Shown one piece after another: positions 20,904 through 39,906 of a DNA stretch of 64,000 nucleotides. The notes under the pieces were generated by a model. The model did not search any database. It had not been told where the DNA came from and saw only the letters and a program-made list of their open reading frames with translations. Within the stretch, counting starts at the first letter, position 1, and every line of letters begins with the position of its first letter. The position numbers and the translations under genes were made by a program. Source of the stretch: Symsagittifera roscoffensis (lineage: Eukaryota); NCBI RefSeq assembly GCF_963678635.1, contig NC_087064.1, forward strand, positions 32,809,028 through 32,873,027, given 5' to 3'.

Positions 20904-20940
20904 CTAACTTTTAAAAGTCTATGTAGGGGTGTTGGGCAGG

Positions 20941-21348: not shown

Positions 21349-21350
21349 TC

Positions 21351-22148: not shown

Positions 22149-22664
22149 AAACAGAACAACTTTGTTCTCCCCCACCCACTTAATTAGTGTCTAACGACCT
22201 CAAACGTCGATTCACTACCCAACCCTTTCTAAAGACCCAAGACTAATAGAAATTTTTAAACAAAACTAATCATTCAAATTAGGATAAACAGTGAAGAACT
22301 TCGGTTATTCATCCTTCACTTGATCCCCCCTCTTACCAGACCCAGGATAAATCTTAGACTTAGTAAGTTTAAAATAGTATCTAACGAACTACTCGCGTTC
22401 TAATTATACCTGAACCTTGTGGATCGATTTACTATTCTCCAACCCTTGAACACAATCACTACCCCTAAGTAAGATTAAGTAAGTTAACACCTTAGCTTAT
22501 ACTAGTCACGAGAAAGTAAAAATCATTCTTCGGAATCGATATACTTTTCTCTCCAACCCTAAACAAATAGACCCAGGTTAAGCTAACCAAAAAATCGTAA
22601 GAACTAACAGTTTAGGAAAATAGAAATCATTTAACAACCTTTTGCACCCGTCATCCTAAACCTT

Positions 22665-23132
22665 ATGTCATTTAAAAACCTAGGGAATAAACAAACAATC
22701 GTTTTACACAATTGTGAAATAGATAACAAAAAATACGACCTTGTAATCACACCTCATACACAAACAGTTGGATACATTCGAACAAAACGACAAACACTAA
22801 AGAGAAAAATAATCACTAAACAAAGACAAATAACACGAAAAAGATTTTCAAAAAATCGAAACGCATTTTCAGAATCAGAAACCAACAGTTTAGACGAACT
22901 CTACAAACTAAAAGAATCAATAGATAAAAATTACCCACAACACGATCAATTATATTTTTCTGACTCAGAAACAACTTCAAATTCATCACAAAGAGGAAAA
23001 AGAAGAATAAAAAAGCAGTATAAACACAAACCAGTACATCTATACAACTGGAATCAACCAATTCGACACATTAATAATTACATATTAACAGTCATCGAAC
23101 GAAAAAATGAGTTCAACGCACACCCCAGGTGA
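22665..23132 (+). CDS. Leader ORF (155 aa, very basic K/R-rich) that overlaps the gag-pol start by 26 nt in another frame. Coding status is uncertain.
   Basis: ORF-track entry. The stop lies downstream of the polyprotein ATG. A-rich sequence biases toward lysine codons, so this may be spurious. Confidence 0.25.
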   Translation: MSFKNLGNKQTIVLHNCEIDNKKYDLVITPHTQTVGYIRTKRQTLKRKIITKQRQITRKRFSKNRNAFSESETNSLDELYKLKESIDKNYPQHDQLYFSDSETTSNSSQRGKRRIKKQYKHKPVHLYNWNQPIRHINNYILTVIERKNEFNAHPR

Positions 23133-26100
23133 CGAAACTCCAGATGATGATGAAATCTTTCCTTTTATAGTAGATGCAGATACTGATAGAGGACAACACA
23201 TATTTTGTCAAAATTTACTCGTAAATTTATTTGAACCCGGAATCAGTCCATGTAAAACAGAGTTCCCCGATGTAAAAATCAAAAGACAAATCATAGATCA
23301 CTATCTAAAAGATATATGCAACATAACACAACAATATGGAATCTACTCTATAGAATTCACTTCCCCAAACCATAATAATAGAACATACACTATTCAAACA
23401 GACGACCTTGATTTAGAATTTTCAAAAGTTTTTTCAGAATATATAAAAAGCATACAATACCATAACTCACAAAGAGCAAACTCCATTTTCACCAATGAAG
23501 TTTTCGCACTAATATATAGTTATATTTCGATATTAGAAAATGAACTCCCATTAACAAATGTCTCACCGACAGAAACATCTAAACATTTAAGAGTACGACA
23601 TGAAATCACACTACTCTCTAGTTATTTAAACATCATTAAAGAAAATTTCACGAAAGACGACGTTTCACAACATACCAAACACGATTTACAAAAAATTTTA
23701 GCATGGTTCATAATAGATTATTTTACACACAATATTGATTTAATTGCACAAGCAAGAAAAAATTTTAGACCCCAAAACTCGAACGATGATACAGCTATCA
23801 CAGAACAATCAGATTATGTTTGGGACCCCGAATGGTCTCATCCCGTATTTATAAACTTTCCACAATCAATCTCAAGTCAAGCAATAGGTACAATATCTTA
23901 CATAAGAGATTATGTAAGAGTAATACCATTAACAATTGATGCAACACCATTAAACTATAATACATTTTTACCCGATACACAAAATAATAGTTTAAACTCT
24001 ACAGTCATACACAATGAAAACCTCAATGGAACTAGGAATCTTACTCAACAAGATATACAGACACCATCACACTTCATAAATGAAGAAATTGTACACACAA
24101 CAACTACACAACAAAGTATTTCACCAATACGCCCAAATTTAACAACACCAAGAAATACAAATCCTTCACAAACACAGGTAACCTTACAATCAACCGTTAA
24201 ACCTTCGGTTGCCCCTAAATATTCACATATGGATTACCAAACATACAAACCCATGACAATACCATCAAAAACACGCAAAACATTCACTAGAAACAACTTT
24301 GCAGACCATAATTATAATTATACACATCCATCAAAAACAAATTATAAACCACAAAGAAATTTTAATCAATATACAAAACCTCGAAACTGGGATAACCCAA
24401 CGGCCCAATATAATTCCACAAATTTTCAACCAAATCCTCCACAGGATCGCAGTGAAAATTACCCATTTTTTCAACAAAATAAAAATAAAAAACAAACATC
24501 TTATCAAATGGATTATTTATCCTCAGATGAAGATTTCTTACAACCAGATATATTTGCACCAAATACTCAAGAATATCGTAGACAAGGAATACAGAAAACA
24601 CGTACAAACCATAGAAATTTTTCTCCACAATCAATAGATGCACAATATCAACAACCAATTCAACAACCAAATCCAATTAATATACAATCTTTTCAACCAA
24701 TTCAACAACAAAATCCAATGACTACACACTCGTATCAACCATCACAAATGCAAAATGAAATACCACTCCCGTATTATCTTCAACAACATGAAATAACAAG
24801 AAACCAACTTTCAAATTTTTCTCAAATGCCAAATGCAGCTGAATCATTACAAATGACAATGAATCCATACCTTATGGGTGGATCATCAATAACATCAAAT
24901 AAACCCTTAATGGTTTTCACAGGAACAGACCCTGAATACTCTGTAGAAGATTACTTAAATGCAGTAACAGCAAATTTAATTTTAAATATTGGACCTGAAC
25001 CAATTAACACGCCACTACATCAAAACTGGATACATCGACGCACAGCGTTGATACAAACAACCTTAGATGGCGCAGCCCAAAAATGGTTTTCAGTACTACC
25101 TCAAGAAATAAAATCAAACTGGAAAAGATTTACACAAGAATTTTCAAAAATGTTTGACTCCGAAAGAAACAAACAACAACAAAGAGTTTTATGTAATGAA
25201 ATTCGCAGATTACCAAACGAAACCATCAAGCAAATAGCAGTAAGAATCGAAACACTAGTTCGAAAAGCATATTCACTAAATACACATGACTATAAAAACA
25301 CTAAGATGACAGAAATCTTAATGATGACCTTAACACCACAATTAAGGAAAATAGCAATAAAAAAGAGAGCATCACATCCTTCTTCAATTCGAGAACCCGA
25401 TTTAGATTTTAGAAAACTAGTAGACAAACTAGAACAAGCAGAAATCACAATGAAATTAGAAGAAACGGAAAATCTGAAATTACAATACGTTAACAAAATT
25501 GAAACGACTCCCACTAATATTAATAATATACAAGAATCAGAAACAGATCTCGTTGAAAAAATCACTGAAATACTCAATATTTACGAAAAGAACCCGAACT
25601 TTAAAGGCAAACCATCTTTCAAAAAATGGTGTAATTATTGCCGACGATACGGACATAGTATTTCCGAATGTAGACAAAAACAACAAGATAGTCAAAATAA
25701 ACCTCAAAAATACAAAGAACCAAATAAATCATTTTATCAATACATGAAAAAAGATCAAAACCTACCAAACAAAAATGTATACAGCAACAACAGTTCAGGA
25801 AAACCACTCCCAAACAATACAAGCTATACAAGAAATCAATCTCCATATAACTCAAGTTATAGAGGAAGATCACCAGAACGAAGAAACACGTATAATTCAT
25901 CACAAAATCACTACAATAGACCGAATAGTCGAAATAACTACTCCAGATCAAATTCAAATACACAACGATTTGTTTCTAGATCTAATTCTCAATCAAGAAA
26001 TAACTATTATCCAAACAACCAATCACGAAATTCATCATACAATAGGAATAGAAACTACTCCTATAATCGAAATAGAAGTTATTCAAACAACCGAAACCAG

Positions 26101-29100
26101 AATTACCCGAACAATCGATCAAGGAATAACTCATATAATAGATCGAACTATAACAGACCAAACAATAATTACCAAAACAGATCACGAAATAATTCACAAA
26201 ATCGACACTCAAGTTATAATAATCGTTATAGAAATTATTCCCAATCACCACACCGGAATAATAATAACTATAATAATTCTAATAATCGCCACAGAAGTAG
26301 TACACCTAAACATCAAAGACAAATCAATCAAGTACAATCTAATCCAGAAACAACATCAGACCCTCCAGGTATTGATGACACAGTAACTGATACGTTACAA
26401 CTCAATCAAATAAACTGTACATCATCAGATTCAGAAAGTGATACTGAAAACACTCTTTCTATCAATATGATAAAAGTCGAAAATGACTATGAATCTGTCA
26501 TATATGAACAACCCTTTCCATCACACATATATGAAAATCAATCAGAATTTCTTCAAAATTATTACACTACACCCATAAATTCCACACCAACAACGCAAGA
26601 AACAAATGAGATTAACACTACAAATCAAACCAATAAAAACACCAAAACAAAATGCTTGAATACAAACCACATTTATCAAAATATACAAAAAGAACAACCC
26701 AAAGAAAAAATTTGGACAATACCATTTCTCTTAGAAAGCCCAAGAAATAAAGAATTTCAACCACCAGACCTTGAAATAGATTTTTTAATTGATTCAGGAG
26801 CAGAATCAAACATAATAAACATTCCCACATGGAATGAAATAAAAATCTTACACCCAAAGCTAACACCTCTTGAAACCTCCAGCAAACTAGCGACAGCACA
26901 AGGATCAACATTGATAAACTACGGAAAAATCCAATTATTTCTCCTCCCTACCAGAACAATGGAACAAAGTAAAATTTTAAATAAGCCATTTAAACAAATA
27001 TTCCATATCACCGATATTAAATATAATATCATTGGAATACCATTTATTTCAAAGTATATACCAACAATTAACATACTAAATAGTAAAATATTAATCAAAG
27101 ATAAATATACAAAAACAAAAGAAACATCCTTAACATTTTTTCAAAGATTGAATAAACAACCACCATTCTTTTCAAAATTTTATCCGATATTTAACCAACA
27201 AAGAAAACACCTGAAACCACTATCAGGAAACATCTATAATTTTTCAATCAAACAAGTTCACCAATATGATAAAGCACAAAACAAACAAAAATTTTATATG
27301 TCAGATTTTGAATTCAAACCGATTCATAAATTTTTCAAAATCACAATCTCTTCAATAAAATATTTGAAAAATTCGAATTCAGATATCATCTCCTTACATG
27401 TCTATAACAACACACCTTACCAAGTAACATTACCATTAGGAGTTTTAGGATATTGTGAAACCAACGCAACAATATCACCAATACACGAAAAAGCCTATCG
27501 CGTAAATAATATACTCCAATTACTAGATATTTGCCAATCTACAATTCTTAATGAAGAATTATCTATAAATAATATAATAAGTAACGAAAACAGAAATACG
27601 GATTATTTCACAAAAACTCCATATTTCAAACCTACATTCAACATCAGTAACTACACAGAGGACCAACAGAAATTTTTAACAATGTTTAATTTCCAACATT
27701 CACAAATAACACAAGACGAATTTGAAAAGTTAGCCAAACAGCTAATTCAATATTCATCAGTCTATGCAACATCAAAATTCGATGTTGGCAAAATCAGTTC
27801 ATCACTACATCTCCCATTAAAACCAGACGCAGTTTTCAAAAAACAAAGAGCAAGTAAAGTACCAATTCACTTACATGATAAAGTAAACAGATTACTCGAT
27901 ATTTTAGAGCAATACAACATTATATCACCGGTTAATAAAGAAGAACAACCAAAAGGCAACACATTCATCAACCCCGTTATCATTCTAGCTAAAGGAGAAT
28001 CGTTAAAAATCGTTCTCGATGCTAGATACCTCAATTCACTCATAGATGAATCAAAATGTAATTGGCTCATTGAACCAATACAAGTTATTTTAACAAAAAT
28101 AAACGGCAAATACTTCACAACCGCCGACATGAATAGTGCATACAATCAAATGCCACTAGATGAACAATCACGACGTTTAACACAATTTGTTATCGGAAAC
28201 CAACAATATGAATTCAACCGCATATTCTATGGAATATCCATAGGACCAGCAGCATTTTCAGCCTTTATGAGCAAAATTTTTAGACCACTAATACTCAAGA
28301 AAAACGCAATCACCTATTTAGACGATGTTTTTATGCAATCACAAACAAAAGACGAAATGTTCAAAGTTTTAGAAACATATCACCAAATACTTCAGAACGA
28401 AAATCTGAAGGCCGCCCCCGATAAATCACACTTCTTTTTGACTAGAGTTAAATTCTTAGGACATAATATAGAAAGAAAAACAATCACTCCACTGAAATCA
28501 CGCATTGACGCTATTCAAAAACTTCAACCACCAACAAATAAAAAGAAAATCCAAGAGTTCCTTGGAATGTTAAACTTTTTAAGTAAATATGTTTATAAAA
28601 TGCAATTATACCTACGACCATTTTATAACATCCTTAGACAACAAAACAACTTTGAATGGAATACAGAACATCAAACACGATTCGAAGAAATAAAGAAACT
28701 TTTAACTGAACAAATTTCAAACACAATTCCAGACCCTGATCAACCATTTTATGCAATGTGCGATGCTTCGAACTTTGGCATCGGCGCAGCATTATTACAA
28801 TCACATAATGGTACAAATAAAATGAACCTCATATCAGCAAATTCTCGATTATTCACTCAAGCAGAGCTACGACTCTCAACTCTAATGAGAGAATGTACAG
28901 CCATAATATATACACTTACAGAATATGAATTTCTGATACTTGGATCAAAACATCCCACAGTTTTGTTCACAGACCACAAACCAATCATCTTTCTTTTTAC
29001 ACAGAAATCTAACCCAAACCACCGAGTTTACAGATTTCAACTAATTCTAATGAAATTTCCAAACTTACATATAGTTTGGACTGCAGGAAAAAATCTTGCA

Positions 29101-31329
29101 TTACCAGACACCTTAAGTCGAAATACACCACCTGAATTACTTACACGAAAAACAACAGTTGAAATACCCAAAAATATAAAATTCTACCTTGCAGAAAACG
29201 AAACATCACCTCGATTAGAATGCAAATATGCAGTAAAAACTGATATTGAACAATCACAAATAAATAATTTACAACATTTCCCACTTTATTTAGATTGTCA
29301 AAATAATCATTATGAAGTTGACCTACTTGGAACATCAACTTTTAAACCAATTCCATATTCTCAATGGATAAAAAATAACACCCAACAAAAACGAACAAAA
29401 CAACACCTACCTAAAAAAGACCATTTTCCACTAATTGAAAAAGAAGATTTAACTGATAAAATAAATTTATCAGGACCACAAACAAATGATTCAAAATACA
29501 CAATAAATCAAGTTTTTGACCTTCACGACCCACTTGATACAATACCATTATCTAAATTAGAAATCGAAAACATTTTTCTCCCCCCAACAGAAACAATTAC
29601 AATTTCAACACTGAAACAATATCAAAACCTTGACCCAGTAATTCGACAACTAAAATCATGGCACAAATATAAAACTAAACCTATCAAAGCAGATTCAACC
29701 ATTCTAGGAAACAAAACACTCCTCCGATACTTTCGCAAGTTTAACAATACAACAATTAACGAAAATACAGACCTTTTAGAGTACAACCTTAATGAATCTA
29801 CAGTTCCCTGTCTCCCTATAAGTATGATTCTTATAGCTTTTAATATTTCACATACACAAAACATTAAAGGACACTCTGGATCAGAGAAAACATATTCAAA
29901 TTTTATACAAAATTTTTACTTCCCAAATGCACCAATTTGGATAAAAGTACTATGCAATGATTGTATAGTATGTCAATTAAATAAACCTTACCCAAATCAA
30001 AAACAAATAGCACAAAAACAAGATTTTAAAGGACAAAGTTTATACTTTAATCATCGTATCTCATTTGATACTAAAGGACCAATTTCACCCTCATCAGAAG
30101 GAAACTCCTACATTATGGTAATTGTTGACGCATTTACACATTATGTAGCACTTAACCCAGTACCACATTGTAACGCTTATTACGCATACACAACACTTTA
30201 TGAACACTGGATAGCAAAATTTGGACTACCAGAAATTTTAGTCACAGACAATGGTACAGAATTCATAAATAATGAAATAATAACACTATGTCATTTATAC
30301 AACATTAAACACAAACCACGTACATCTCATGCACCTTGGACAAACGGCTTAGTCGAAGGTATGAACCGTTCACTACAAGAATATCTTAGATGTATCATCA
30401 ACGGAAATGATACCAAATATACCGAATGGTCAGCAGATGTAAAATTATTTCCATTAGCATATAATTCACAAATCACGACAACTTTAGGAATGTCACCATA
30501 CGAAATGGTTTTCAACCAAAAGCCACGCAAACCAATAATGTTTACAGCAAATTCCCATAAAAACGCACAAGGTTATTGTCAACCAAATAAAGACTCAATT
30601 TGTTATAACCTACCATTACATACGCACGATGAAGATCATTTTCATCACCCACAAATCCTTAAATTAGCCTCCGGTACACACACCGAATGGATTTTAAATA
30701 GAGATAAGAAACACAATGAAATTTACCAAAAAATAACGAAAAAGTTATTACAAAGACAAAACATAAATGAACAAATCAATTCACGTTTTACACCAGCTTC
30801 CGATTTAAAAATTGGAACATTTGTTTTAATACCTAATTTTAATACTCAAAAAGGAATTTCTAAAAAATTACAACCCCTCCGAAAAGGACCCTATCAAATA
30901 ATTGCAAAACCCACAGATGTCACATATAAAATTATCGACTCAAACAAAAAAGAAATCGTTCAGCATCGAAACAACCTATTACCTTATTACCCAAAAGAAT
31001 ACGCACTCCGCGAATTAACCCAATTATATTCTTTCACAGGATTAAAAATTATTCAAAACGAACCACATCTGAAAAACACAGAACAAAATGATAACCCCAC
31101 CGAAAATCAAAACACAAAACCAATCGCTACCAAAAACAATACACAAAACCATAAAGAATCTCCAAAACAAAGAAAAAATAGAAAAATGACAGAACAAATA
31201 ATACCCCAAGAAGAAATAGACAAATCAGAACATAGAAAGACAACAAGACTCCGAAATCAACCACGTAAAAACTACAAAATGTTCATCCCCCAATCTAAAA
31301 TATTAAAGAAAGTAGAATTTAAAAATTAA
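23107..31329 (+). CDS. gag-pol polyprotein (2740 aa): N-terminal extension, gag-like, CCHC zinc knuckle, Arg/Ser/Asn-rich region, aspartic protease, RT, RNase H, integrase.
   Basis: Uninterrupted 8.2-kb ORF. Motifs CNYCRRYGHSISEC, FLIDSGAESN, TTADMNSAYNQMPLDE, YGISIGPAAFS, ITYLDDVFM, RVYRFQLILMKFPNLHIVWTAGKNLALPDTLSRN, H-x6-H-x29-C-x2-C, VIVDAF...VTDNGTEF...TNGLVEGMN, LRKGPYQI. Confidence 0.93.
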   Translation: MSSTHTPGDETPDDDEIFPFIVDADTDRGQHIFCQNLLVNLFEPGISPCKTEFPDVKIKRQIIDHYLKDICNITQQYGIYSIEFTSPNHNNRTYTIQTDDLDLEFSKVFSEYIKSIQYHNSQRANSIFTNEVFALIYSYISILENELPLTNVSPTETSKHLRVRHEITLLSSYLNIIKENFTKDDVSQHTKHDLQKILAWFIIDYFTHNIDLIAQARKNFRPQNSNDDTAITEQSDYVWDPEWSHPVFINFPQSISSQAIGTISYIRDYVRVIPLTIDATPLNYNTFLPDTQNNSLNSTVIHNENLNGTRNLTQQDIQTPSHFINEEIVHTTTTQQSISPIRPNLTTPRNTNPSQTQVTLQSTVKPSVAPKYSHMDYQTYKPMTIPSKTRKTFTRNNFADHNYNYTHPSKTNYKPQRNFNQYTKPRNWDNPTAQYNSTNFQPNPPQDRSENYPFFQQNKNKKQTSYQMDYLSSDEDFLQPDIFAPNTQEYRRQGIQKTRTNHRNFSPQSIDAQYQQPIQQPNPINIQSFQPIQQQNPMTTHSYQPSQMQNEIPLPYYLQQHEITRNQLSNFSQMPNAAESLQMTMNPYLMGGSSITSNKPLMVFTGTDPEYSVEDYLNAVTANLILNIGPEPINTPLHQNWIHRRTALIQTTLDGAAQKWFSVLPQEIKSNWKRFTQEFSKMFDSERNKQQQRVLCNEIRRLPNETIKQIAVRIETLVRKAYSLNTHDYKNTKMTEILMMTLTPQLRKIAIKKRASHPSSIREPDLDFRKLVDKLEQAEITMKLEETENLKLQYVNKIETTPTNINNIQESETDLVEKITEILNIYEKNPNFKGKPSFKKWCNYCRRYGHSISECRQKQQDSQNKPQKYKEPNKSFYQYMKKDQNLPNKNVYSNNSSGKPLPNNTSYTRNQSPYNSSYRGRSPERRNTYNSSQNHYNRPNSRNNYSRSNSNTQRFVSRSNSQSRNNYYPNNQSRNSSYNRNRNYSYNRNRSYSNNRNQNYPNNRSRNNSYNRSNYNRPNNNYQNRSRNNSQNRHSSYNNRYRNYSQSPHRNNNNYNNSNNRHRSSTPKHQRQINQVQSNPETTSDPPGIDDTVTDTLQLNQINCTSSDSESDTENTLSINMIKVENDYESVIYEQPFPSHIYENQSEFLQNYYTTPINSTPTTQETNEINTTNQTNKNTKTKCLNTNHIYQNIQKEQPKEKIWTIPFLLESPRNKEFQPPDLEIDFLIDSGAESNIINIPTWNEIKILHPKLTPLETSSKLATAQGSTLINYGKIQLFLLPTRTMEQSKILNKPFKQIFHITDIKYNIIGIPFISKYIPTINILNSKILIKDKYTKTKETSLTFFQRLNKQPPFFSKFYPIFNQQRKHLKPLSGNIYNFSIKQVHQYDKAQNKQKFYMSDFEFKPIHKFFKITISSIKYLKNSNSDIISLHVYNNTPYQVTLPLGVLGYCETNATISPIHEKAYRVNNILQLLDICQSTILNEELSINNIISNENRNTDYFTKTPYFKPTFNISNYTEDQQKFLTMFNFQHSQITQDEFEKLAKQLIQYSSVYATSKFDVGKISSSLHLPLKPDAVFKKQRASKVPIHLHDKVNRLLDILEQYNIISPVNKEEQPKGNTFINPVIILAKGESLKIVLDARYLNSLIDESKCNWLIEPIQVILTKINGKYFTTADMNSAYNQMPLDEQSRRLTQFVIGNQQYEFNRIFYGISIGPAAFSAFMSKIFRPLILKKNAITYLDDVFMQSQTKDEMFKVLETYHQILQNENLKAAPDKSHFFLTRVKFLGHNIERKTITPLKSRIDAIQKLQPPTNKKKIQEFLGMLNFLSKYVYKMQLYLRPFYNILRQQNNFEWNTEHQTRFEEIKKLLTEQISNTIPDPDQPFYAMCDASNFGIGAALLQSHNGTNKMNLISANSRLFTQAELRLSTLMRECTAIIYTLTEYEFLILGSKHPTVLFTDHKPIIFLFTQKSNPNHRVYRFQLILMKFPNLHIVWTAGKNLALPDTLSRNTPPELLTRKTTVEIPKNIKFYLAENETSPRLECKYAVKTDIEQSQINNLQHFPLYLDCQNNHYEVDLLGTSTFKPIPYSQWIKNNTQQKRTKQHLPKKDHFPLIEKEDLTDKINLSGPQTNDSKYTINQVFDLHDPLDTIPLSKLEIENIFLPPTETITISTLKQYQNLDPVIRQLKSWHKYKTKPIKADSTILGNKTLLRYFRKFNNTTINENTDLLEYNLNESTVPCLPISMILIAFNISHTQNIKGHSGSEKTYSNFIQNFYFPNAPIWIKVLCNDCIVCQLNKPYPNQKQIAQKQDFKGQSLYFNHRISFDTKGPISPSSEGNSYIMVIVDAFTHYVALNPVPHCNAYYAYTTLYEHWIAKFGLPEILVTDNGTEFINNEIITLCHLYNIKHKPRTSHAPWTNGLVEGMNRSLQEYLRCIINGNDTKYTEWSADVKLFPLAYNSQITTTLGMSPYEMVFNQKPRKPIMFTANSHKNAQGYCQPNKDSICYNLPLHTHDEDHFHHPQILKLASGTHTEWILNRDKKHNEIYQKITKKLLQRQNINEQINSRFTPASDLKIGTFVLIPNFNTQKGISKKLQPLRKGPYQIIAKPTDVTYKIIDSNKKEIVQHRNNLLPYYPKEYALRELTQLYSFTGLKIIQNEPHLKNTEQNDNPTENQNTKPIATKNNTQNHKESPKQRKNRKMTEQIIPQEEIDKSEHRKTTRLRNQPRKNYKMFIPQSKILKKVEFKN
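25630..25671 (+). other. Nucleocapsid CCHC zinc knuckle (C-x2-C-x4-H-x4-C).
   Basis: tgt aat tat tgc cga cga tac gga cat agt att tcc gaa tgt, in frame. Confidence 0.85.
25800..26330 (+). other. Arg/Ser/Asn/Tyr-rich low-complexity domain (RS-like) between the NC and protease.
   Basis: About 175 residues of repeated SRNNYS / NRNRSYS / NRSRNNSYNR motifs. Confidence 0.8.
26740..27080 (+). other. Aspartic protease domain.
   Basis: IDFLIDSGAESNIINIPTW, with DSG at 26791-26799. The matching segment exists in the degenerate copy. Confidence 0.8.
27810..29130 (+). other. Reverse transcriptase plus RNase H.
   Basis: RT motifs A through E, with YLDD at 28324-28335. RNase H CDASNFGIGAALLQ then TDHKPI, and the linker ending NLALPDTLSRN at 29124. 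Confidence 0.85.
29800..30950 (+). other. Integrase: HHCC zinc finger, DDE core and GPY/F-like C-terminus.
   Basis: HTQNIKGH...CNDCIVCQ, D(VIVDAF)...D(VTDNGTEF)...E(LVEGMN), and LRKGPYQIIAKPTDVTYKI. Confidence 0.85.
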
Positions 31330-31929
31330 TTTTAAAATTTTATACTTCACAATCTTGAAACCTCCGTAACATTTTTCATTTCCATTTTTCAAAATAACAT
31401 GCTCACAAGTACGCAATAATTCTAGTTCAAAATAGACCAATAGGATTCATCCAATCCGCCACTTTCTCTAACTCAAACTAAGATCAATTAGACGAATAAT
31501 CTAGAACTCCAGGCACATCTCTAACTATAACTTTACAACCTCCAGGTCAAAAATAAGCAAACCACTCCAACTTGACAGCTAAAATAAATATCACCATAAT
31601 ACCGTACCCCTCCCTTATCTAATAACCCAAAGATCAACAATATTTCCCCAACTCAGACCACGAATACCCCCAAAACAAATTTGATAACTTAGCCTAAAGT
31701 CACAAAATGAAGATTTTAATTAGCCTAAAGTATAAAAATCTCACCATACCCCGGATCATTTGACAAACAAAAATAAAGAAAAAGACGACCTCCCAGTCAC
31801 CATGAAAATTGCCCCCAACAATTTTTTACGAAACTCAACCCACTTGTCAAAAAACTAATAAATAATTCGACCACACTAGAAAATCGCCTCAAACAGCAAA
31901 AAATATTCGACAAAGAGATCATTTCTTAA

Positions 31930-32345
31930 ATGCTTTTCTCTCAAACAGTCGCTCAAATATTTATCAATTTTAAACATTTTTTTTCAATACTTCAAGTCTT
32001 TATAATCTTTCTTTTTGATATCATCGAATCTTTTCTAATAATCATAATAATTTTTTGTAACATTTTTTTAATTTTCTACACAATAATTGAACTATTCCTC
32101 CAACTTTCCAAAACCCTTGAATATATCCACAGGTACGATTTTAACAACTTGTCTAAATGATACGAACAATTTTCAGTAGAACTGATATTTTTTTATTGTT
32201 TGTAATTTTCATAACATTTCTATCATCCCTCATTTTGACAATATGTAAATGTATAAAGAAAGCAATCATTACATTTGCCCTAGCAACAATTTTTCTAATT
32301 CTTTTTTTAGAAGAATATTATAATAAACATAAACCCTCTCACTAA
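31930..32345 (+). CDS. Two short, very hydrophobic ORFs (76 and 62 aa) joined by an ATGA stop-start overlap at 32157. Coding status is uncertain.
   Basis: ORFs 31930-32160 and 32157-32345. T-rich sequence could create them by chance. Confidence 0.2.
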
Positions 32346-32350
32346 AGTAA

Positions 32351-33488
32351 CAATTTAAAAATCCATCAAAAATTGCTACCCAACAGTCACAGAATCAGTC
32401 TTCACCGACATCATCCCAAGATAATCCAACACCACCTTCAACTACTCAAAACCCTCAAACATCTACACGAATTTCTTTTCAAGACAATCCATACACCTTT
32501 GAAGAAAGGCACGCTCGTTTATCTGAACCACTAGAACCAGTTCAACGACAAGCATCCCTAAGTGAACCAACATATAATCTTTACCCAACACTACCACAAG
32601 AACTAAGTAGAATACGAAACCTTAGTCAAAACCAAAACACAGCAGAAATAAATAGACAAATTATACATCCTCGACGAAATAGAAATTTTCAAACTCCCCG
32701 AGTTCATTTTGATATACCTCAATCCCCAACACAAACCACTCCAGAAAACACCACTGGTATCACACCAGAAACTCCTACACTTTTTTCACAACGAAGCACT
32801 TCAAGTCTACCTTCAGACTACTTAGGTTCAACACCAACATCTGAACAGATACGTGAAAATCCCTTTAACCCCCCAAACCTAACATCACGACTGCCATATT
32901 GGACTACAAATTCATTCACACAAGGTGAACCAAATTTAGTCAATGACCCCATAGATATTTCTACGGATACAACAACATCCTCATCACTACCAGAAACATT
33001 ATCACTACCATCAACACCATCAATAAGTCAATTTTCACCACTACCCTTTAACTTAAATTTTCCAAATAATCTCGACGCCAGATATCGAGAACAATCATCA
33101 ATAAATATTCCTTTAAGATTAGATTGGAATACATTCACAGCACCTCCACCACTATTTGGACAACATCAAGAAAGTAACCGCCTTCATAACTGGGCACTTA
33201 ATAGATTACAATATCGCCAAGATATTCACAACGATATCCGTGATCACAATATTCAAATACTCCAACAAAACAGTTTACAATTAAAATTTGAAATCACAGT
33301 TAAGTTAAATAATATTACCCAACATCCCTACCCATTAAATCCACCTAACATAACAGCTCAATCACTACCACCACCGTTTATAACTACTGAAGTAATATAC
33401 AAATACGACAGATACACTAAAAACACAATTGGTTACATTACATTTTATAATCCATACTCAGGATTATCATACACATGTATATTCTAAA
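32351..33488 (+). CDS. ORFx: open reading frame of 378 codons with no in-frame ATG. N-terminus is S/T/P/Q-rich.
   Basis: Stop at 32348-32350, then no stop until taa at 33486-33488, in AT-rich DNA where stops are expected about every 15-20 codons. The C-terminal part is conserved at protein level in the degenerate copy (ORF 4402-4680). It overlaps the env-like ATG (33475) by 14 nt. Confidence 0.6.
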
Positions 33489-36093
33489 ATTATTAATTTT
33501 TCTCCAAACCCTTTTTCTAATAACCTCAAATCAAAATATAAACCCTTCCCCTCGTACAGGACCACAAGATTTATTAGTAACACATTACGATTGCGAAGAA
33601 AATGAACAAAAAACACTACATAAATATGCAATCAATCAGGTATCACAATGTGAAACAGAACCACAAGCTATAGAAACCACAGATATAATAGCAACACTCT
33701 ATTCAAAAGCCCGAGCAACAACAGTTACAGGTTATAAATTCACAGCAACATTTTCCGAAAAGAAAGTACATTGTTCACAAGTCTCGAACGGAAACAAAAA
33801 CCGACTTGACCATGAATCATTCTACCAAAGTAATATAGAACGTCTTTTACATCTCAATCCCGACGATTGTAAAAATGAATTACTTAGACTAAACATCACA
33901 AAAAATAAAAACTCCCAAAGAAAATTAGTTAATTTTCAAGTTTTTTCAGACTCTGTACATCAATCACAACTTGAAAGACACCAAGGACATATAAGACTAG
34001 ACGAAAAATACCCGTATAACGGCGCACACGGACGATTAACCTATGACCTACATGATAAACACTGGATACCACACATTGGTATAAATAACCCATCAAACTG
34101 CAAAGCAGACACAAAAAATAAAGGATACCAAGAAATAATGTTTTTCGATTGGAAAATACAACTCGAAAAAATACAACTCACACGAGATTTATCTGATAAT
34201 ACAATGATCTATCAAGGAATCCGACTACCTTGTAAAAATGATCAAGGATATTGCGACCCTACAACGAGAACACAAGCAACAATTGTTTGGTTCCCCGAAG
34301 ACACATGTACAACATTTCAAGTAGCAAAAATACACGCTCGTATGATAAAATTTCACGAAAAATATTTCATACAATCAATTCCATATGAACAAGTCCATCC
34401 ATCACGCAAACTAAGTTCCGATTTTCGAAACATAGACAATATAGAAAATAAATTGACACGTTTTCAAATATATCAAGAAACAGAACTTGCATGTAAATAC
34501 AGGAATCCACTTCACAGAACACAATACTCTGAAATATTAGTTGAATATGAAAAAGGATTCGACATGACCACTGGTAAAGTAAAAATCGACCCATACGCCA
34601 CAGGTCATCCTCTAAACGAAGGAACATCCTATATACCAGTTAATTTTGAAAAAAGCAACGGACAACCTGGTGGACATCTAAAACCTTATGACACCAGAAG
34701 CACACGCTTACAAGAATTATCACTAATGAATACTACATATTTTGGTAATATCCACTATGATATTCATTTGGATATGAAACTAGACTATACAATTAGCCGC
34801 ATTTTTCAAGAAATGTCACTCTCTGAATTAGAAACACTACATCAACTATGCGAATTAGAACGAACACAAATACTACAATCACTTGCACTAGCAGTATTAA
34901 AAATACCCTACGCAGGATACTTATTATCAGGAAATAGATCAAATTTTTTAGACTACGAAGGAAACATCTTATGGTTTTATACTTGTACTAAAAAAGTATC
35001 ACCACTATACGTTTTTGAAGATAAACGATGTTATAAAAGAATTCCTATCTTTTATAAGAATAAAGTACATTTCGTGGATACACTTTCACGAAGAACATAT
35101 TTCTGGGATACCGCAGTCCCATGTGGATCAGAAAATAGCCACAATGTAGTACAACTAAACCCTGATGAAAACAAATATTATCTTCTCACTCCATATCCCA
35201 CATTAATGCAATCACTCAAAAAATTTTCACCAGAAAGCATTCGCGCTATTGCTCGAAACCCAAATATAGACTTACAATCAATAGGAATCTATTCAAAATC
35301 AGATATTCAACATCACATTAGAACACAACAATTCCAAGAATTATTAACACAAATGGACACTATACAAAGACAATCAATAGACCAAAACTTACGCAAACTT
35401 GCAGAAACCGCAGGATTTGCCGATATCTACACGCAAGACTATAGCGGATATTTTAAAGACATAAAAGATTATATATATCTAAACGGCGAAAAATACCGTC
35501 CCCAAGATATATCACCAATTAACATTTTTAGCTTTGTTACACTCAAAAATGAGATCCTAGATTTTCTAGGATGGCCCTACTACATCTTAGAAAAATTGAC
35601 TATTTTATACGCAATGTTTAACTTTATTGGATTTCTTTTCTCACTCTTAAAAGGAATCTACAATACATGTGCTATACACACACAAGTAAACAGACAAGCA
35701 AGCGTAGCACGCATACTCTTTGCAGGATTTTTTGGAATTTTTTCCACATCTATAAACAAAATTCTTTTAGACGCACAAATAAAAGAATATAACACAAAAA
35801 TAACAACACGACAAAATACATACGACGAAGAACATAACAATGTCGACACACAGCCAACGGCACCACAATTACCACCCCTACCAAATAACCATCCACTATC
35901 CCTAGCCCCGCGAAATTTTAGAAATTTAGCAATCACACATAATCCAAATTTTCGACTCACCACATCACAAAGTCCCGTCCAACATATAATGACACATCCA
36001 TCACAAGATGATAATACTTATGAACAAATTATTGAACAGCCCCATACCACCGCTTTTCAATCTCAAAATAATAATTTTTTTAGCCCACGATGA
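33475..36093 (+). CDS. env-like glycoprotein candidate (872 aa): N-terminal signal peptide, Cys-rich ectodomain, C-terminal hydrophobic anchor.
   Basis: MYILKLLIFLQTLFLITSNQN is a signal-like start. Many Cys and N-x-S/T sites. Hydrophobic segments LTILYAMFNFIGFLFSLLKGIY and ARILFAGFFGIFSTSI near the C-terminus. Homologous fragments are in the degenerate copy. Confidence 0.75.
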   Translation: MYILKLLIFLQTLFLITSNQNINPSPRTGPQDLLVTHYDCEENEQKTLHKYAINQVSQCETEPQAIETTDIIATLYSKARATTVTGYKFTATFSEKKVHCSQVSNGNKNRLDHESFYQSNIERLLHLNPDDCKNELLRLNITKNKNSQRKLVNFQVFSDSVHQSQLERHQGHIRLDEKYPYNGAHGRLTYDLHDKHWIPHIGINNPSNCKADTKNKGYQEIMFFDWKIQLEKIQLTRDLSDNTMIYQGIRLPCKNDQGYCDPTTRTQATIVWFPEDTCTTFQVAKIHARMIKFHEKYFIQSIPYEQVHPSRKLSSDFRNIDNIENKLTRFQIYQETELACKYRNPLHRTQYSEILVEYEKGFDMTTGKVKIDPYATGHPLNEGTSYIPVNFEKSNGQPGGHLKPYDTRSTRLQELSLMNTTYFGNIHYDIHLDMKLDYTISRIFQEMSLSELETLHQLCELERTQILQSLALAVLKIPYAGYLLSGNRSNFLDYEGNILWFYTCTKKVSPLYVFEDKRCYKRIPIFYKNKVHFVDTLSRRTYFWDTAVPCGSENSHNVVQLNPDENKYYLLTPYPTLMQSLKKFSPESIRAIARNPNIDLQSIGIYSKSDIQHHIRTQQFQELLTQMDTIQRQSIDQNLRKLAETAGFADIYTQDYSGYFKDIKDYIYLNGEKYRPQDISPINIFSFVTLKNEILDFLGWPYYILEKLTILYAMFNFIGFLFSLLKGIYNTCAIHTQVNRQASVARILFAGFFGIFSTSINKILLDAQIKEYNTKITTRQNTYDEEHNNVDTQPTAPQLPPLPNNHPLSLAPRNFRNLAITHNPNFRLTTSQSPVQHIMTHPSQDDNTYEQIIEQPHTTAFQSQNNNFFSPR

Positions 36094-37883
36094 GCCGCCA
36101 ACTTGGATCACTCCATCGATCAAATTCCCATCCAACCAACCTTACCTCTTCAATCCCAATAATACCACTTTTTGCTTTTCCGCCACCCGATTTTCCATCT
36201 AGCAATGTAACATCAGGCATGAATTCCGACACTAACTCACAAATTTCAGTTTTATACTCCATTTCACAGCTAAATAACCCGAATATTGAAACCCCCGACG
36301 AATTTGCCGACTCAGAACCATCTCCATCCAATAATTTTCATAACCCTTCTCATTTTTCTCAACCTCCTTTTCAACCCATATTATCAAATAACCCTGACCC
36401 AATCACTCCTACACCCTCTTATGCTTCCCAAGTTACCCCAACCTACTCCTCATACCATTCTGACCAATCATCTCCAGACACCCCCCGAATCTCCCCAGAG
36501 CTAGACAATTTTATTACCCTCCAACAACAACCCTACCACCTTAACACCCCGACCATAAACCAAATCTCCTCCACTACAAATTCATCCAATCCCCCTACAC
36601 CCTCTTCAAATTATACCGAATCATTAGCACCATCATCCACATCAACTGAATCCTCACTCAACACTAATAGAGCTTATCGCACTTTTAAAAGAAAGTTCCC
36701 CAACCATCCTTTCCCAGCAAAACCAGGAACAGCCCGAGAATACATCAACCACCCCCAACATACTAACACTAGAGAATTTTTAGCCATCACTTTACCCTCA
36801 TTTCCACAATACACCTTAAACACCCCTCATGACGCTAACGAAACACGCAACTTTGTAGACGAATACGTTTTAATGCCCACTCTCTCTTGGACCTCATACT
36901 ATCATTTCACTAACCCTCTTTGCTTACCTTTAACTAACACATCCATTGATATAGACCGAAACAAAGACATGCTATATCGACTAACTACACCACTCACCGC
37001 TAGACAATTTACTTACGTTGGATATAAAAAATCACTAAAAATACACACTGCACCTAGAGCTAACGAATACACACTAGAATACTATGATCACAACATCATC
37101 AGAGCTAACCAAGATCAATTCTTAGACGACGATCGCTTCGCTAACCCACAAATCACCGAGAAATTTTTCATCAATACACCATATGTATTTACACTAAACA
37201 TCTTCGACCGAAAGTTTGATCACATTATTTCAGAAGCACTAACAAGCACACAAGCGTACGAAAGTTTTAAAGAACGCTTCCAAATCTTTTCACTAACCTT
37301 TCATTTCCTTGCACCACACGAAAGAGATTTACACTGCTCACACGATATTATGTTGCGAACTAAACAAACACATACATACAGTTACTATCGTTTCATCCAA
37401 AATCACTTTGACCTCCACACACCCTCTAGACAACCACACCATCGCTTTCAATTCATCAATTCAAAATACACTTCACCGTATTTCCTAAATTTCACATATT
37501 GTATTAAAAATACTAACCTTCATGGTATTCTTCGTAATTATGACCCCATAACCCAAATGTATATTTTCTGCCCCATCACCAAGACCTTCAACGCAGAAGA
37601 ATCCCGACCCTTCCTTATCCCGCACGAGTTTGTACAGCCTATAGAAATCCCCATTTTAGAATTCATCCACAACACTAAATTTAACCACAAGTTATATAAC
37701 TTAATCCAAAACACACCTTATGAGTTTGCAGTAGGCACTGAAGAACTAACCACTATTAAGGCACTTCAATTGCTTTGGCCACTACTTCAAACTAAAAATA
37801 TCATCCGCATCTTAGCTAAACTACTAACAACTTCAGAACTAATTCACAATATCTTCCCCCACGGTTTTTTCCCCGACGACTAA
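36090..37883 (+). CDS. ORF3 (597 aa), unknown function. Pro/Ser/Thr-rich N-terminal half and a structured C-terminal half.
   Basis: Its ATG overlaps the env-like stop (cgATGAgc at 36090-36093). It is conserved in the degenerate copy (822-1495, minus strand). No recognisable motif. Confidence 0.7.
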   Translation: MSRQLGSLHRSNSHPTNLTSSIPIIPLFAFPPPDFPSSNVTSGMNSDTNSQISVLYSISQLNNPNIETPDEFADSEPSPSNNFHNPSHFSQPPFQPILSNNPDPITPTPSYASQVTPTYSSYHSDQSSPDTPRISPELDNFITLQQQPYHLNTPTINQISSTTNSSNPPTPSSNYTESLAPSSTSTESSLNTNRAYRTFKRKFPNHPFPAKPGTAREYINHPQHTNTREFLAITLPSFPQYTLNTPHDANETRNFVDEYVLMPTLSWTSYYHFTNPLCLPLTNTSIDIDRNKDMLYRLTTPLTARQFTYVGYKKSLKIHTAPRANEYTLEYYDHNIIRANQDQFLDDDRFANPQITEKFFINTPYVFTLNIFDRKFDHIISEALTSTQAYESFKERFQIFSLTFHFLAPHERDLHCSHDIMLRTKQTHTYSYYRFIQNHFDLHTPSRQPHHRFQFINSKYTSPYFLNFTYCIKNTNLHGILRNYDPITQMYIFCPITKTFNAEESRPFLIPHEFVQPIEIPILEFIHNTKFNHKLYNLIQNTPYEFAVGTEELTTIKALQLLWPLLQTKNIIRILAKLLTTSELIHNIFPHGFFPDD

Positions 37884-37889
37884 CAGGTA

Positions 37890-37965
37890 AGTATGAACTA
37901 AATGAATATTACTAACTAATTAAAATATTGAAAAACTCACCATTCCTTATTCATGTTTTCTTTAG
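37890..37965 (+). other. Intron-like signal immediately after the ORF3 stop: consensus donor, TACTAAC branch point, pyrimidine tract and AG.
   Basis: gactaaCAG|GTAAGTATg ... atTACTAACtaat ... ttcatgttttctttAG|att. Confidence 0.3.
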
Positions 37966-39498
37966 ATTTTTAGCCTTCATCTTCAATCATCTGAAAAATT
38001 CACAAAAGAAAAATAAAAAATAGCAAACTTCTTCAAAACTATTTAAAACCCTATTTAACTTTTGCACCAACAATTAAATAAATATAATACCAATGCAGTA
38101 AATTAATTTATAAAATTTTCCCCTAAAAGCAGTAAATCTACATATGATGAAAATTTGTATCTTAAAATTCCCCCATTACTAGCAGTAAATTTCCAAATTC
38201 TATGCAGTAAATTAATAAAATGCAATTGCAGTACTAACCTTTTGATATTTTCATTCATTCGCACAGAAATTCTATCCACACTCGCACAGCTCGCCCACGA
38301 AGAATTGTTTAAAATAATGAATTTCAGTTTCAAGTTTTCACACTCAACAACTCTAACAAATAATAACAAGTTTCAAACTTTCCTTTAACCCGGTTGGAAA
38401 GGAATCATATACTAAACAAAACTAACCAACGCAGCTTACTAAATACCACAAATCATAAAATAACAGCATGACTAAGAAAAGGAAACCAACGGTACCCAAA
38501 CCGGATTAACCCAGTTTAAAACTGGATAATTTATTCTTTTGAAGACTATTACAAAGTCTTAGAAAGAAATAATAAAACACAAAAAAGTCAAAAGACAAAC
38601 CCATACCACAAACAATTTGCTTTTTGGAAAAAGTACATAACCAACAAAACATAAGTAAAACCACAACAAACCCAACATAAAATGTTGTCACATAACAGGA
38701 CCCCTCATAAAAACCGCATGAAATCATACTCCCACACCTGGCCTAACCCACCAGGAAAGGACGTCCTGAGCATGCTCTATAGCCGGCCTAACCCACCGTG
38801 CTACATCCACGCTTTGTGACCACACCTTTATTTTTAATAAGAGCTACTCAAGGGTGAGTAACTCTTCAAAATAACCGAACTAAAACAAAAAGCTTTTGTG
38901 AAAACAACTAACTAAAATCATAATTAAAAAATATTAAATTAATAAAAGTTTTATAAAATGTAAAATCACATGATGCAATATATAGATCAGAATACAACAC
39001 CAAGGACGAACATCAAAAGACAAGACGACCTCACTACACTCGAGAGAGAATGACCAACTATAATCGATATGCCGCTCACAATCACAACTCAAAGGATTTA
39101 GAGTACGACTTGACCTCGCAGAAAAGGACTTCATTGAACTAGACCAATGACCACCTCGATGTTCAAGTATACGTACAGATCCGAGTAACCAGGCATCCCC
39201 TCCACGCACAATCTCCACGCCATTCCCGAGCTAGATCAAACACAAAAGAAGTTCTCTCCGAAGAACAGAAAAACCTGACATAGCCAACCATTCTGAAACC
39301 AGAATTGATGCTGTTGCAGAGACTCAGTCGTTGTCACAAGAAGAACACAACGTCTTGTGTCCTCAATTCCAGATCCCTGGAACTTCCTTAACAAAAAGGA
39401 AACAAAAGAAAAATGATGTTCGCCAAATACCAACGTCCATCATCCATCCTTGAACTACAAAAGAACTGTTCTAAAAAACTCTGTAAAACCCGGATGGG

Positions 39499-39906
39499 TG
39501 GAACCTGATCTAAACTATATTTTATGATTGGATAAATTAAATGTTTTACCAATGTAAAGTATTTAATATTAACCAATCATGATCCATCTAACTAACAACC
39601 CACTTATTTGTAAGTGCTGAAGTTACTTGTAATTTCAGCACCAGAGAGATTTGAATTTAACTTAGAAATTAGTTGGACTCTCCCGAGCACTTCAGCAGCC
39701 GCAATAAACCAGTATACCCTAGATCTATTGAGCCTAGCAGAGACTAGTTAAACAACCTGAGACTAGATAGTATAAGAGTAAGATTAGGATCGGTATTAGA
39801 CTAAGAAGTTGCACGAATCTATCCGGCCGAAAATAAGATAGCGTGACGAGCAGACGGTGTACCCTATCCGAAATTACTCTATGAGTTACACTCCAGTCCA
39901 AACTCA
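39499..39906 (+). repeat. 3' LTR (408 bp).
   Basis: Identical to 20941-21348. Preceded by a weak purine tract cccGGATGGG. Confidence 0.9.

Follow-up and report, generated by a model that had tools for sequence, protein, structure and literature searches.

In rice tungro bacilliform virus (RTBV), open reading frame (ORF) I starts at AUU; approximately 10% of ribosomes initiate there and the others scan through 900 nucleotides (nt) that are free of AUG, with a short internal upstream ORF (uORF) being tolerated (PMC5902531). In human immunodeficiency virus type 1 (HIV-1), vpu and env share a bicistronic messenger RNA (mRNA) that is read by leaky scanning, such that Env, which has no mRNA of its own, is reached past a weak upstream start (PMC6337239). 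The CERV protein of Cer1, a Ty3/gypsy element of C. elegans without env, is made from a five-exon spliced mRNA that borrows gag exons (PMC10309623). Further, env-carrying Ty3/gypsy elements ('errantiviruses') with gB/G-type class III fusogens have been surveyed across metazoans (PMC13524379). Here, a locus from Symsagittifera roscoffensis is examined (NCBI RefSeq assembly GCF_963678635.1, contig NC_087064.1, positions 32,809,028 to 32,873,027, forward strand), with the whole stretch of 64,000 nt referred to as the window and numbered from its first nucleotide. The window contains a retroelement with long terminal repeats (LTRs) in which a 378-codon ORF without any ATG, termed ORFx, lies between pol and env. 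Comparison of copies of the element indicates that ORFx is under purifying selection and cleared of ATG in all three frames, and ORFx may be an accessory cistron that most ribosomes pass on their way to env. The features on which the argument turns are as follows.

23107 to 31329, plus strand: gag-pol, 2740 amino acids, of Ty3/gypsy type, with Pfam matches.
32351 to 33487, plus strand: ORFx, 378 sense codons (32351-33484) followed by TAA (33485-33487).
33475 to 36093, plus strand: env, 872 amino acids, a class III fusion glycoprotein (PF24664, Monjiviricetes_fusion).
4320 to 5450, minus strand: decayed homologue of ORFx in a second copy of the element, found by tblastn, covering the whole ORF and broken by stops and frame changes.

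The locus resembles the ORF I-II-III region of RTBV (Caulimoviridae) in its putative weak non-AUG upstream start in good context, its approximately 1 kb of AUG-free coding sequence, its short ORF overlaps, its small internal uORF, and its reverse-transcribing nature. RTBV differs in being a plant pararetrovirus without LTRs or integrase, in which ribosomes first shunt on the pregenomic RNA and leaky scanning then gives access to the main polyprotein, whereas in the element under study the downstream gene is env and the mRNA is probably subgenomic. As in HIV-1 vpu/env, an accessory ORF stands immediately 5' of env and overlaps the start of env in another frame; moreover, the start-stop uORF AUGUAAUG at the HIV-1 vpu start (PMC6337239) has a counterpart in the element, ATGTAAATG, at 32243-32251. 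Vpu is unlike ORFx in that it has an AUG and is an 81-amino-acid membrane protein, while ORFx has 378 codons, no AUG, no hydrophobic segment and no sequence similarity to Vpu; the candidate membrane protein of the element is encoded separately, by the segments ORF-a and ORF-b described below. Like CERV, ORFx is lineage-restricted, without known homologues, located 3' of pol in a Ty3/gypsy element, not translatable alone, and characterized by a predicted helix or zipper and basic motifs. Unlike CERV, it has no in-frame donor at the conserved leader sites and no similarity to gag. Coding sequence that is kept AUG-free so that ribosomes pass through it is known from experiment only in plant pararetroviruses and, in a weaker form, in HIV-1. 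ORFx would exemplify a conserved AUG-less gene in an animal LTR retroelement, with a sequence apparently shaped in every frame for passage to env.

A sequence-only reading of the window had pointed to a 378-codon frame without ATG between pol and env, and both its content and its location were borne out: translation of 32351-33490 yields 378 sense codons with no methionine and then TAA, the upstream neighbor carries gag, reverse transcriptase (RT), ribonuclease H (RNase H) and integrase domains, and the downstream neighbor matches PF24664. The start coordinate given there stands, while the end (33488) was one base too far. Similarly, the overlap with env had been put at 14 nt and is in fact 13 nt (env ATG at 33475), the -1 frame being correct, since codons begin at positions ≡2 mod 3 in ORFx and at positions ≡1 mod 3 in env. 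Because it lacks ATG altogether and, for most of its length, in-frame GTG and TTG as well, ORFx was missed by start-codon-based ORF listing. A frame of this length is, as had been claimed, unlikely to arise by chance: when the region was shuffled 2000 times, the longest open run had a mean of 80 codons and a maximum of no more than 184. The two alternative frames of the region contain 19 and 30 stops.

A total of 12 further copies were compared, including 9 from contigs reached via ORFx-like proteins, 2 extra copies in those loci, and the second copy in the window; 3 of the 12 were not chosen for an open ORFx, and counts out of 13 given below are for these copies plus the window element. The ratio of nonsynonymous to synonymous substitution rates (dN/dS) was calculated on the aligned copies by the method of Nei and Gojobori in all three frames. 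Across the 12 copies it was 0.09-0.22 in the frame of ORFx versus 0.87-2.1 in the two shifted frames, which is the comparison over several genomic copies that the sequence-only reading had proposed as a check. Low values extend over the low-complexity N-terminal two thirds (0.14-0.28) as well as the C-terminal third (0.00-0.13), and the constraint is comparable to that on the N-terminus of env (0.09-0.41). In the non-coding interval 31400-31900, dN/dS was ~0.5-0.9 in most comparisons and showed no frame preference. Even the minus-strand copy in the window, despite its stops and frame changes, gave 0.21 overall, 0.12 in the C-terminal third, and 0.9-1.5 in the shifted frames. This agrees with the earlier remark that the degenerate copy keeps its C-terminal sequence at the protein level; the extent assigned to it, 4402-4680, was too short, as the homologue spans 5450 to 4320.

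As the first loci had been chosen via open ORFs, 10 more copies were fetched on an identical env protein alone. The same 378-codon ATG-less ORF was present in 8 of these (5 identical, 3 with one residue changed), and the remaining two carried one frameshift and one 1-nt insertion, respectively. The absence of an ATG thus represents the master configuration of the active subfamily rather than a defect of one copy, and among the members of this subfamily dN/dS of ORFx was still 0.12-0.16 at dS of ~0.19. Additionally, indels inside open copies of ORFx are nearly all multiples of 3. A total of 233 homologues of ORFx were found in the protein database, of which the best match, from an insertion variant, is only 95% identical because start-codon-based gene callers miss the ORFx of young copies; for the same reason, the ORFx of young copies is absent from a database of 5.8 billion proteins. 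The core of the earlier inference, namely that the frame codes for protein, is under purifying selection and has no AUG of its own, thus holds, both by dN/dS across copies and by the open ORF in copies that were not selected for it, and ORFx is almost certainly a functional gene judging from these comparisons.

The ORFx product is rich in Pro, Ser, Thr, Gln and Asn and is predicted to be mostly disordered, with a C-terminal helix and a small beta-sheet. The AlphaFold model has a predicted local distance difference test (pLDDT) score of 42, with residues 1-270 essentially disordered and with a helix at 273-304 and three strands at 344-377 modeled at pLDDT 56-71. No signal peptide, hydrophobic segment or Pfam match was found in ORFx, and a profile search against Protein Data Bank (PDB) chains returned none at E≤1. 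A search of 1.84 billion representative proteins returned 256 matches, the 150 listed all being fragments of ≤308 amino acids that are interpreted as decayed copies of the same family; no relative of ORFx from outside the element family was among the matches listed. Conservation falls in short blocks along the chain (RISFQDNPYTFEERHARLSEP, LYPTL, NRQIIHPRRNRNFQTPRVHF, ENPFNPP, LPETLSLPSTPS, and LRLDWNTF.APPPLFGQ). Short motifs, including LYPTL, ENPFNPP, HPRRNRNFQTPR, and LPETLSLP, were considered as pointers to function and set aside as too weak for an assignment. A relationship of ORFx to ORF4 or to the gag N-terminus as paralogues was likewise rejected (BLASTP E>1). From where the gene lies and from its likely co-expression with Env, a role connected with Env or with particle assembly is suggested, and it might be guessed that ORFx is a disordered adaptor or regulator that acts with Env or genomic RNA; as a guess, an RNA role of the CERV or Rev type, such as the export of genomic RNA, is equally conceivable. 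It should be noted that the family has produced several derivatives of ORFx: P0096/L030, in which ORF-a is fused to ORFx via CCCT microhomology; P0034, in which ORFx is fused to the C-terminus of ORF4 and env is lost; P0058, an ORFx-env fusion by indel; and P0041, with an internal duplication in ORFx. P0096 had been considered as a retro-copied spliced RNA, which was rejected as the junction is a microhomology deletion and not GT..AG.

The relation of ORFx to the coding segments on either side bears on how it could be expressed. Immediately upstream are the following.

31930 to 32132, plus strand: ORF-a, a hydrophobic coding segment from a conserved ATG, which may be exon 1 of a small membrane protein.
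32133 to 32176, plus strand: candidate 44-nt intron (GTACGA...TTTTCAG) that would link ORF-a and ORF-b in frame.
32177 to 32345, plus strand: ORF-b, with two hydrophobic stretches, ending in ...EEYYNKHKPSH and TAA (32343-32345).
32346 to 32371, plus strand: A-rich spacer from the ORF-b stop to the putative start of ORFx, with a length that is not a multiple of 3.

In the 8 copies whose ORF-b is intact, the spacer is 25-31 nt long; its phase differs from copy to copy, and the first conserved codons of ORFx after it are S-K-I-A-N/T-Q. Among 14 database proteins that extend upstream, the frame relation of ORF-b and ORFx is +1 in 10 and in frame in 4; in the window it is +2. The varying phase and the non-triplet spacer mean that ORF-b and ORFx are separate cistrons, the in-frame fusions (for example, P0011) being mutants. 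On the other side, the sole ORFx-env fusion that was found, P0058, is an indel mutant. From these layouts, it is highly probable that the ORFx cistron is distinct from both ORF-b and env.

What the sequence-only reading overlooked are these upstream segments, ORF-a and ORF-b, and a depletion of ATG in all three frames of ORFx that ties its expression to the translation of env. The ORFx region contains 1 ATG in 1124 nt versus 7.5±2.0 expected from dinucleotide shuffles, 0 of 500 of which were as low; by the same test, depletion is absent from pol, env, ORF4, and the upstream non-coding stretch. When codon order was shuffled with codon usage fixed, the 2 out-of-frame ATGs observed, one of which is the env ATG, compared with 7.3±2.2 (P=0.009). 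The depletion persists in the 13 copies, where extra ATGs are scattered singletons in decayed copies and the recurrent ones are at 31930, 32157, 32243/32249, 32943, and 33475. Moreover, the frequency of internal Met in 120 ORFx homologues is 0.07%. The ATG-free gaps running from 32249 to 32943 and from there to 33475 terminate exactly at the env ATG, which is conserved in 12 of 12 copies covering the site and is preceded by 13 nt that are almost invariant. As in an RTBV-type module, the upstream ORF is thus depleted of ATG in all frames up to the AUG of the next ORF, with one mini-ORF ATG remaining. A comparable arrangement precedes gag-pol, and the sites concerned at both places are given here.

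21853 to 22664, plus strand: section of the 5' leader that has no ATG and runs up to the ORF155 ATG, with conserved, perfect GTAAGT donor-like sites at 22363 and 22479.
22665 to 23132, plus strand: ORF155, 155 codons, overlapping gag-pol by 26 nt, with no further ATG in any frame before 23107.
32302 to 32310, plus strand: TTTTTTTAG, candidate acceptor for an mRNA of ORFx and env, located 61 nt 5' of the AUU.
32372 to 32374, plus strand: AUU, put forward as the near-cognate start codon of ORFx, within AAAAUUG (32369-32375), with A at -3 and G at +4.
32396 to 32398, plus strand: CAG codon, a possible phase-0 3' splice site (CAG/TCT, the slash marking the junction) with no T-run before it.
32943 to 32954, plus strand: sole ATG in the ORFx region, opening a 3-codon mini-ORF (ATG ACC CCA TAG) in another frame.

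The longest ATG-free gap in the element, 815 nt from 21850 to 22665, closes at the ORF155 ATG and is followed by the gap from there to the gag-pol ATG (22665 to 23107); the ORF155 pattern is conserved in other copies, and the codon-shuffle test on ORF155 gives P=0.045. Another long gap of 600 nt (25775 to 26375) lies within gag-pol. By its layout, the design is used twice, an ATG-cleared upstream ORF overlapping the start of a major gene by 13-26 nt being a leaky-scanning signature, and the ATG-free zone of ORFx rather probably reflects scanning to env.

In the model that is preferred here, the ATG-free stretch of the 5' untranslated region would provide the leader, probably by splicing from 22363 or 22479 to an acceptor shortly 5' of ORFx. 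If the leader donors were joined to 32311, after the AG of TTTTTTTAG at 32310, the mRNA would carry no AUG from 21853 to the start of env apart from that of the mini-ORF, and ORFx would present the first, weak start; the ATG-free leader and its conserved donors are compatible with both ORFs on one such mRNA. A few ribosomes would initiate at AUU 32372, and most would scan on to the env AUG at 33475, given that AUU is weak and that the 1.1 kb of ORFx are cleared of ATGs in three frames. One mRNA would then yield little ORFx protein and much Env. What the comparisons demonstrate is the constraint on coding, the lack of ATG in the active lineage, the depletion of ATG, and the separation of the cistrons; the start, the leaky scanning, and the transcript structure are what we infer from sequence features, and the composite of a separate accessory cistron, an AUU start, and leaky scanning to env is assigned a probability of about 0.45. 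Of the expression routes that the sequence-only reading had proposed, a non-AUG start is the best supported, an AUG from an upstream exon is possible with little in its favor, and frameshifting fails.

Several observations bear on where initiation could occur. By reading, ATT at 32372 is the first in-frame near-cognate codon. Its context AAAAUUG is kept in 11 of 13 copies, three wobble positions included, while dS between subfamilies reaches ~1. A decayed copy, L005, has ATG at exactly this codon, and the copy L007 retains G at +4 though the rest of the next codon differs. In 4 copies the ORFx frame is shut 5-7 codons upstream of K-I-A, therefore the start must lie at or after that point. The region around the AUU is unstructured (folding energy -2.3 kcal/mol, z=0.3), and folding revealed no start-enhancing hairpin 3' of the AUU. 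Initiation at precisely AUU 32372 is a tentative assignment on these grounds.

A number of points weigh against the composite model. First, AUU is a weak near-cognate codon, and four conserved ATGs just 5' of it (31930, 32157, 32243, and 32249) would catch ribosomes if the mRNA began further 5'. Second, the AG of TTTTTTTAG at 32310 is kept in just 7 of 13 copies, and conservation of this site is uninformative in any case because it lies within the constrained coding sequence of ORF-b. Third, a well-conserved CAG/GA (AG at 33460-33461), 13 nt before the env ATG, is a candidate acceptor dedicated to env and, if it were used, scanning through ORFx would be unnecessary. Fourth, the conserved CAG at 32396-32398 hints at an acceptor within the 5' end of ORFx. 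Finally, the transcript ends, splice sites, and start codon of ORFx are all inferred, and the compared copies represent one family from one or two assemblies, such that nucleotide conservation rests on few independent lineages.

The alternative that survives best is that an upstream exon supplies the AUG, in the style of Cer1 CERV or of a classical retroviral env mRNA, with a donor in the leader or gag joined to an acceptor at the 5' end of ORFx such as that between 32398 and 32399. In Cer1, the ORF located 3' of pol constitutes the C-terminal half of a protein made from the five-exon spliced mRNA (PMC10309623). Splice signals do exist in the element under study (intron 37887-37965 and the GTAAGT donors). 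Among the 33 Gln codons of ORFx (29 CAA versus 4 CAG), the only conserved CAG is that at 32396-32398, which is in phase 0, is present in 11 of 13 copies and has a GCTAAC branch-point-like motif ~20 nt upstream in most subfamilies. Further, ATG/GTTAGT at 21850 would yield an exon ending in AUG, in phase with CAG/ at 32386, 32392, and 32398. This last candidate was rejected as it is missing from L002b, L005, and W2. In contrast to the two acceptors with the best support, the AG at 32398 lacks a T-run; the active subfamily reads CTACC in place of CTAAC at the putative branch point; and in 11 of 13 copies KIANQ, which lies 5' of this AG, remains in the frame of ORFx. Neither conserved donor, at 22363 or 22479, is reached by an open frame that begins with ATG, and the two therefore cannot supply an in-frame AUG; no leader ATG occurs 3' of 21850, and the frame opened at 21850 ends after ~15 codons. 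Phase-0 donor-like sites within gag-pol are present at 24178 and 30118. Taken together, supply of the AUG by an upstream exon is considered unlikely.

Termination-reinitiation, in which ribosomes would complete the small membrane-protein ORF, terminate at 32343-32345 and begin again ~26 nt further on with no AUG needed, is less likely again. It would leave the depletion of ATG across ORFx unexplained, and by reading no motif complementary to 18S was seen. The features that would suit it are a spacer held at 25-31 nt though its phase varies, and tight stop/start layouts that recur in the element (the ATGA shared by env and ORF4; the overlap of ORF155 and gag-pol). Calicivirus restart sites, moreover, tolerate non-AUG codons. 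The upstream ORF, however, has 62-123 codons, which is long for unaided reinitiation (PMC5902531), and 26 nt from the stop is far for a tethered restart.

It is very improbable that ORF-b and ORFx form a single gene whose linker has been disabled by a stop or frameshift in the window copy and related copies. A membrane anchor with a long disordered tail would be a plausible protein, and EEYYNKHK continues in frame into ORFx in P0011/L001, P0003/L003, P0007, and P0118. These 4 are outnumbered by the 10 of 14 extended matches in +1, the ORF-b stop (CAC TAA) is the majority state, and the separated layout is found in 8 of 10 young copies that were not selected on ORFx, inside which subfamily purifying selection on ORFx continues. 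Additionally, there is no GT in 32253-32346, so an intron in the linker would be without a donor; cis-splicing from ORF-b to ORFx in the active subfamily was rejected for this reason, the only later GT (32347) following the ORF-b stop. A -1 or +1 frameshift from ORF-b into ORFx is impossible, as the last stop in the ORFx frame (32348-32350) lies 3' of the ORF-b stop.

A programmed -1 frameshift near the overlap that would generate an ORFx-Env fusion, one of the routes proposed in the sequence-only reading, is scarcely credible. The 13-nt overlap with env in the -1 frame and one such database protein, P0058, are what it would draw on, yet P0058 originates from an indel. Env has its own conserved ATG and a signal-peptide-like start, and a signal peptide located 378 residues into a fusion would not function. 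Because a TAA at 33448-33450 shuts the env frame, a productive slip would be confined to the 34 nt at 33451-33484, where reading found no slippery heptamer of the form X XXY YYZ. Lastly, the notion that ORFx is not a gene and is instead a chance frame in T-poor low-complexity DNA or a decaying remnant, for which the G- and T-poor strand, the low-complexity product, the low pLDDT, and the lack of homologues outside the family could be cited, is effectively refuted by the 184-codon maximum in shuffles, the strong contrast in dN/dS between frames, the almost exclusively triplet indels of open copies, and retention of the ORF in copies not selected for it.

With regard to the segments upstream of ORFx, ORF-a and ORF-b, if joined, could encode a predicted multi-pass membrane protein of ~123 amino acids, a viroporin-like accessory gene. 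In its frame, ORF-a has dN/dS of 0.2-0.5 in 9 of 12 comparisons, and its ATG at 31930 is kept in 10 of 13 copies, while ORF-b has dN/dS of 0.05-0.09 in 10 of 12 comparisons and keeps the position of its stop in 7 of 13 copies. The interval 32133-32176 has GT in 12 of 13 copies and AG in 12 of 13, with a length of 44, 45, or 48 nt. As an alternative, ORF-b may have its own start at the conserved ATG 32157, which lies inside the candidate intron. Within ORF-b, ATGTAAATG forms a start-stop mini-ORF that is followed directly by another ATG and is kept in 10-12 of 13 copies; its conservation may simply mirror Cys-Lys-Cys codons. Between pol and ORF-a, two conserved islands (31520-31580 and 31721-31745) stand out in otherwise neutral DNA. 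One contains TCTAAC..CCTCCAG/GTCAAAAATAAGCAAAC, which resembles a 3' splice site, and the other contains a duplicated TAGCCTAAAGT motif with GTATAAAAATC, which is TATA-box-like and may point to an internal promoter.

The element as a whole extends over 18,968 bp (20939-39906), as delimited by two direct repeats in a self-comparison of the window. Its remaining features are the following.

20939 to 21348, plus strand: 5' LTR, 410 bp, found by self-blastn.
36090 to 37883, plus strand: ORF4, 597 amino acids, with an ATG that overlaps the env stop (ATGA) and with TTTTTTTAG 6 nt 5' of that ATG.
37887 to 37965, plus strand: canonical 79-nt intron (CAG/GTAAGT ... ACTAAC ... TTTAG) that begins 3 nt after the ORF4 stop.

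The 3' LTR (39497-39906) is 100% identical to the 5' LTR by self-blastn, and TGGTGCGACC, directly after the 5' LTR, resembles a primer-binding site. The order of Pfam domains in gag-pol is that of Ty3/gypsy elements (in amino acids: gag, as Retrotrans_gag, 648-734; RVT_1 1665-1788; RT_RNaseH 1876-1984; Integrase_H2C2 2244-2294; rve 2315-2406). Env matches PF24664 with E=3.9e-11 and 42 bits (cut-off 27) and, by reading, has a signal-peptide-like N-terminus and a C-terminal hydrophobic segment. Features of Metaviridae with env are present, namely identical LTRs, an ordered gag-RT-RNase H-integrase polyprotein, and a fusion glycoprotein gene 3' of pol. Judging from these features, the host element is a young, env-bearing endogenous retrovirus of Ty3/gypsy type (Metaviridae). 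The N-terminal half of ORF4 is rich in Pro, Ser, and Thr and the C-terminal half is probably folded, and no Pfam or PDB match to ORF4 was found. Its start region is conserved in 10 of 10 aligned sequences. More than 120 distinct full-length variants of ORF4, at 98-100% identity, are present in the database; as the best 120 matches in the homologue search were all copies of this kind, no diverse alignment could be built. In the index of the assembly collection, 59 blocks contain a protein identical to ORF155 and 27 contain one identical to env. From these counts, the family is evidently very active, with well over a hundred near-identical copies; the relatives of the element all come from two assemblies of the European Nucleotide Archive (ENA), ERZ25071366 and ERZ25878734.

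Like the metazoan errantiviruses, the element has LTRs, gag-pol in Ty3/gypsy order, a class III fusogen 3' of pol, and many near-identical copies, and it differs from those in the survey in its length of 19 kb and in carrying four or more additional coding segments (ORF155, ORF-a/b, ORFx, and ORF4). The text of that survey, as searched, is silent on accessory genes and on splicing, and the phyla it gives do not include Xenacoelomorpha (PMC13524379). Elements of the Ty3/gypsy group that bear env are widespread in animals and have been described as gag-pol-env machines, to which this active one adds conserved genes. A wider reading, possible but doubtful, is that the element is a complex endogenous retrovirus of an invertebrate, perhaps an acoel-like worm, with an env-side cassette (a small multi-pass membrane protein, the AUG-less and disordered ORFx, a class III fusogen, and ORF4) expressed in the style of pararetroviruses, by non-AUG initiation and scanning, at two places (ORF155 to gag-pol and ORFx to env). 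In that case ORFx would be a previously unknown kind of accessory protein, for example, a matrix- or adaptor-like partner of Env or a regulator like Rev or CERV. If true, gene regulation of the 'complex retrovirus' type would have arisen independently outside vertebrates. Such ORFs would be invisible to start-codon-based gene callers, and ATG-free zones would offer a simple computational signature of hidden cistrons in other retroelements.

Splice signals are present at several further places in the element. The intron at 37887-37965 has a conserved donor and acceptor and interior indels that are not multiples of 3, from which it appears that the element carries real spliceosomal signals. The GTAAGT donors at 22363 and 22479 are conserved in copies L002, L007, and L030, and that at 22363 also in L005, which has a foreign insertion exactly at the second donor site (22479). 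The leader block 22300-22665 is far better conserved between subfamilies than coding DNA and likely holds the major 5' splice donor along with other cis elements. Sites that combine a T-run with YAG, like TTTTTTTAG, number only 6 in the 19-kb element. One such site lies in 36075-36093 (TTTTTTTAG/CCCACGATGA), where the T-run and TAG stand 6 nt before the ORF4 ATG in 10 of 10 aligned sequences, which suggests a dedicated ORF4 acceptor or a stop-start coupling of env and ORF4.

The second copy of the element in the window (minus strand, ~512-16800) is decayed and has 72-79% nucleotide identity to the first. Its pol region contains a 3.6-kb internal tandem duplication (7851-11461 and 11464-15078, 98.8% identical). 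The coding strand of the element is A/C-rich with an extreme asymmetry (A ~40%, G ~9%, GC skew -0.3 to -0.5), of which the inverted second copy shows the mirror image. No match was returned when the window was scanned for Rfam families and tRNAs. A tandem repeat of ~60 bp occupies 22000-22150 of the leader, and the otherwise 99%-identical copies L010-L019 differ by ~60 bp, which is one unit. Finally, a weak hint of an acoel-like host comes from one copy of the element, in L013, which adjoins a single-exon gene for a 441-amino-acid Na/Ca exchanger (514-1839, minus strand), the top named invertebrate matches of which are the acoels Convolutriloba macropyga and Symsagittifera roscoffensis at ~40% identity, with a fish (Coregonus) match being slightly higher.

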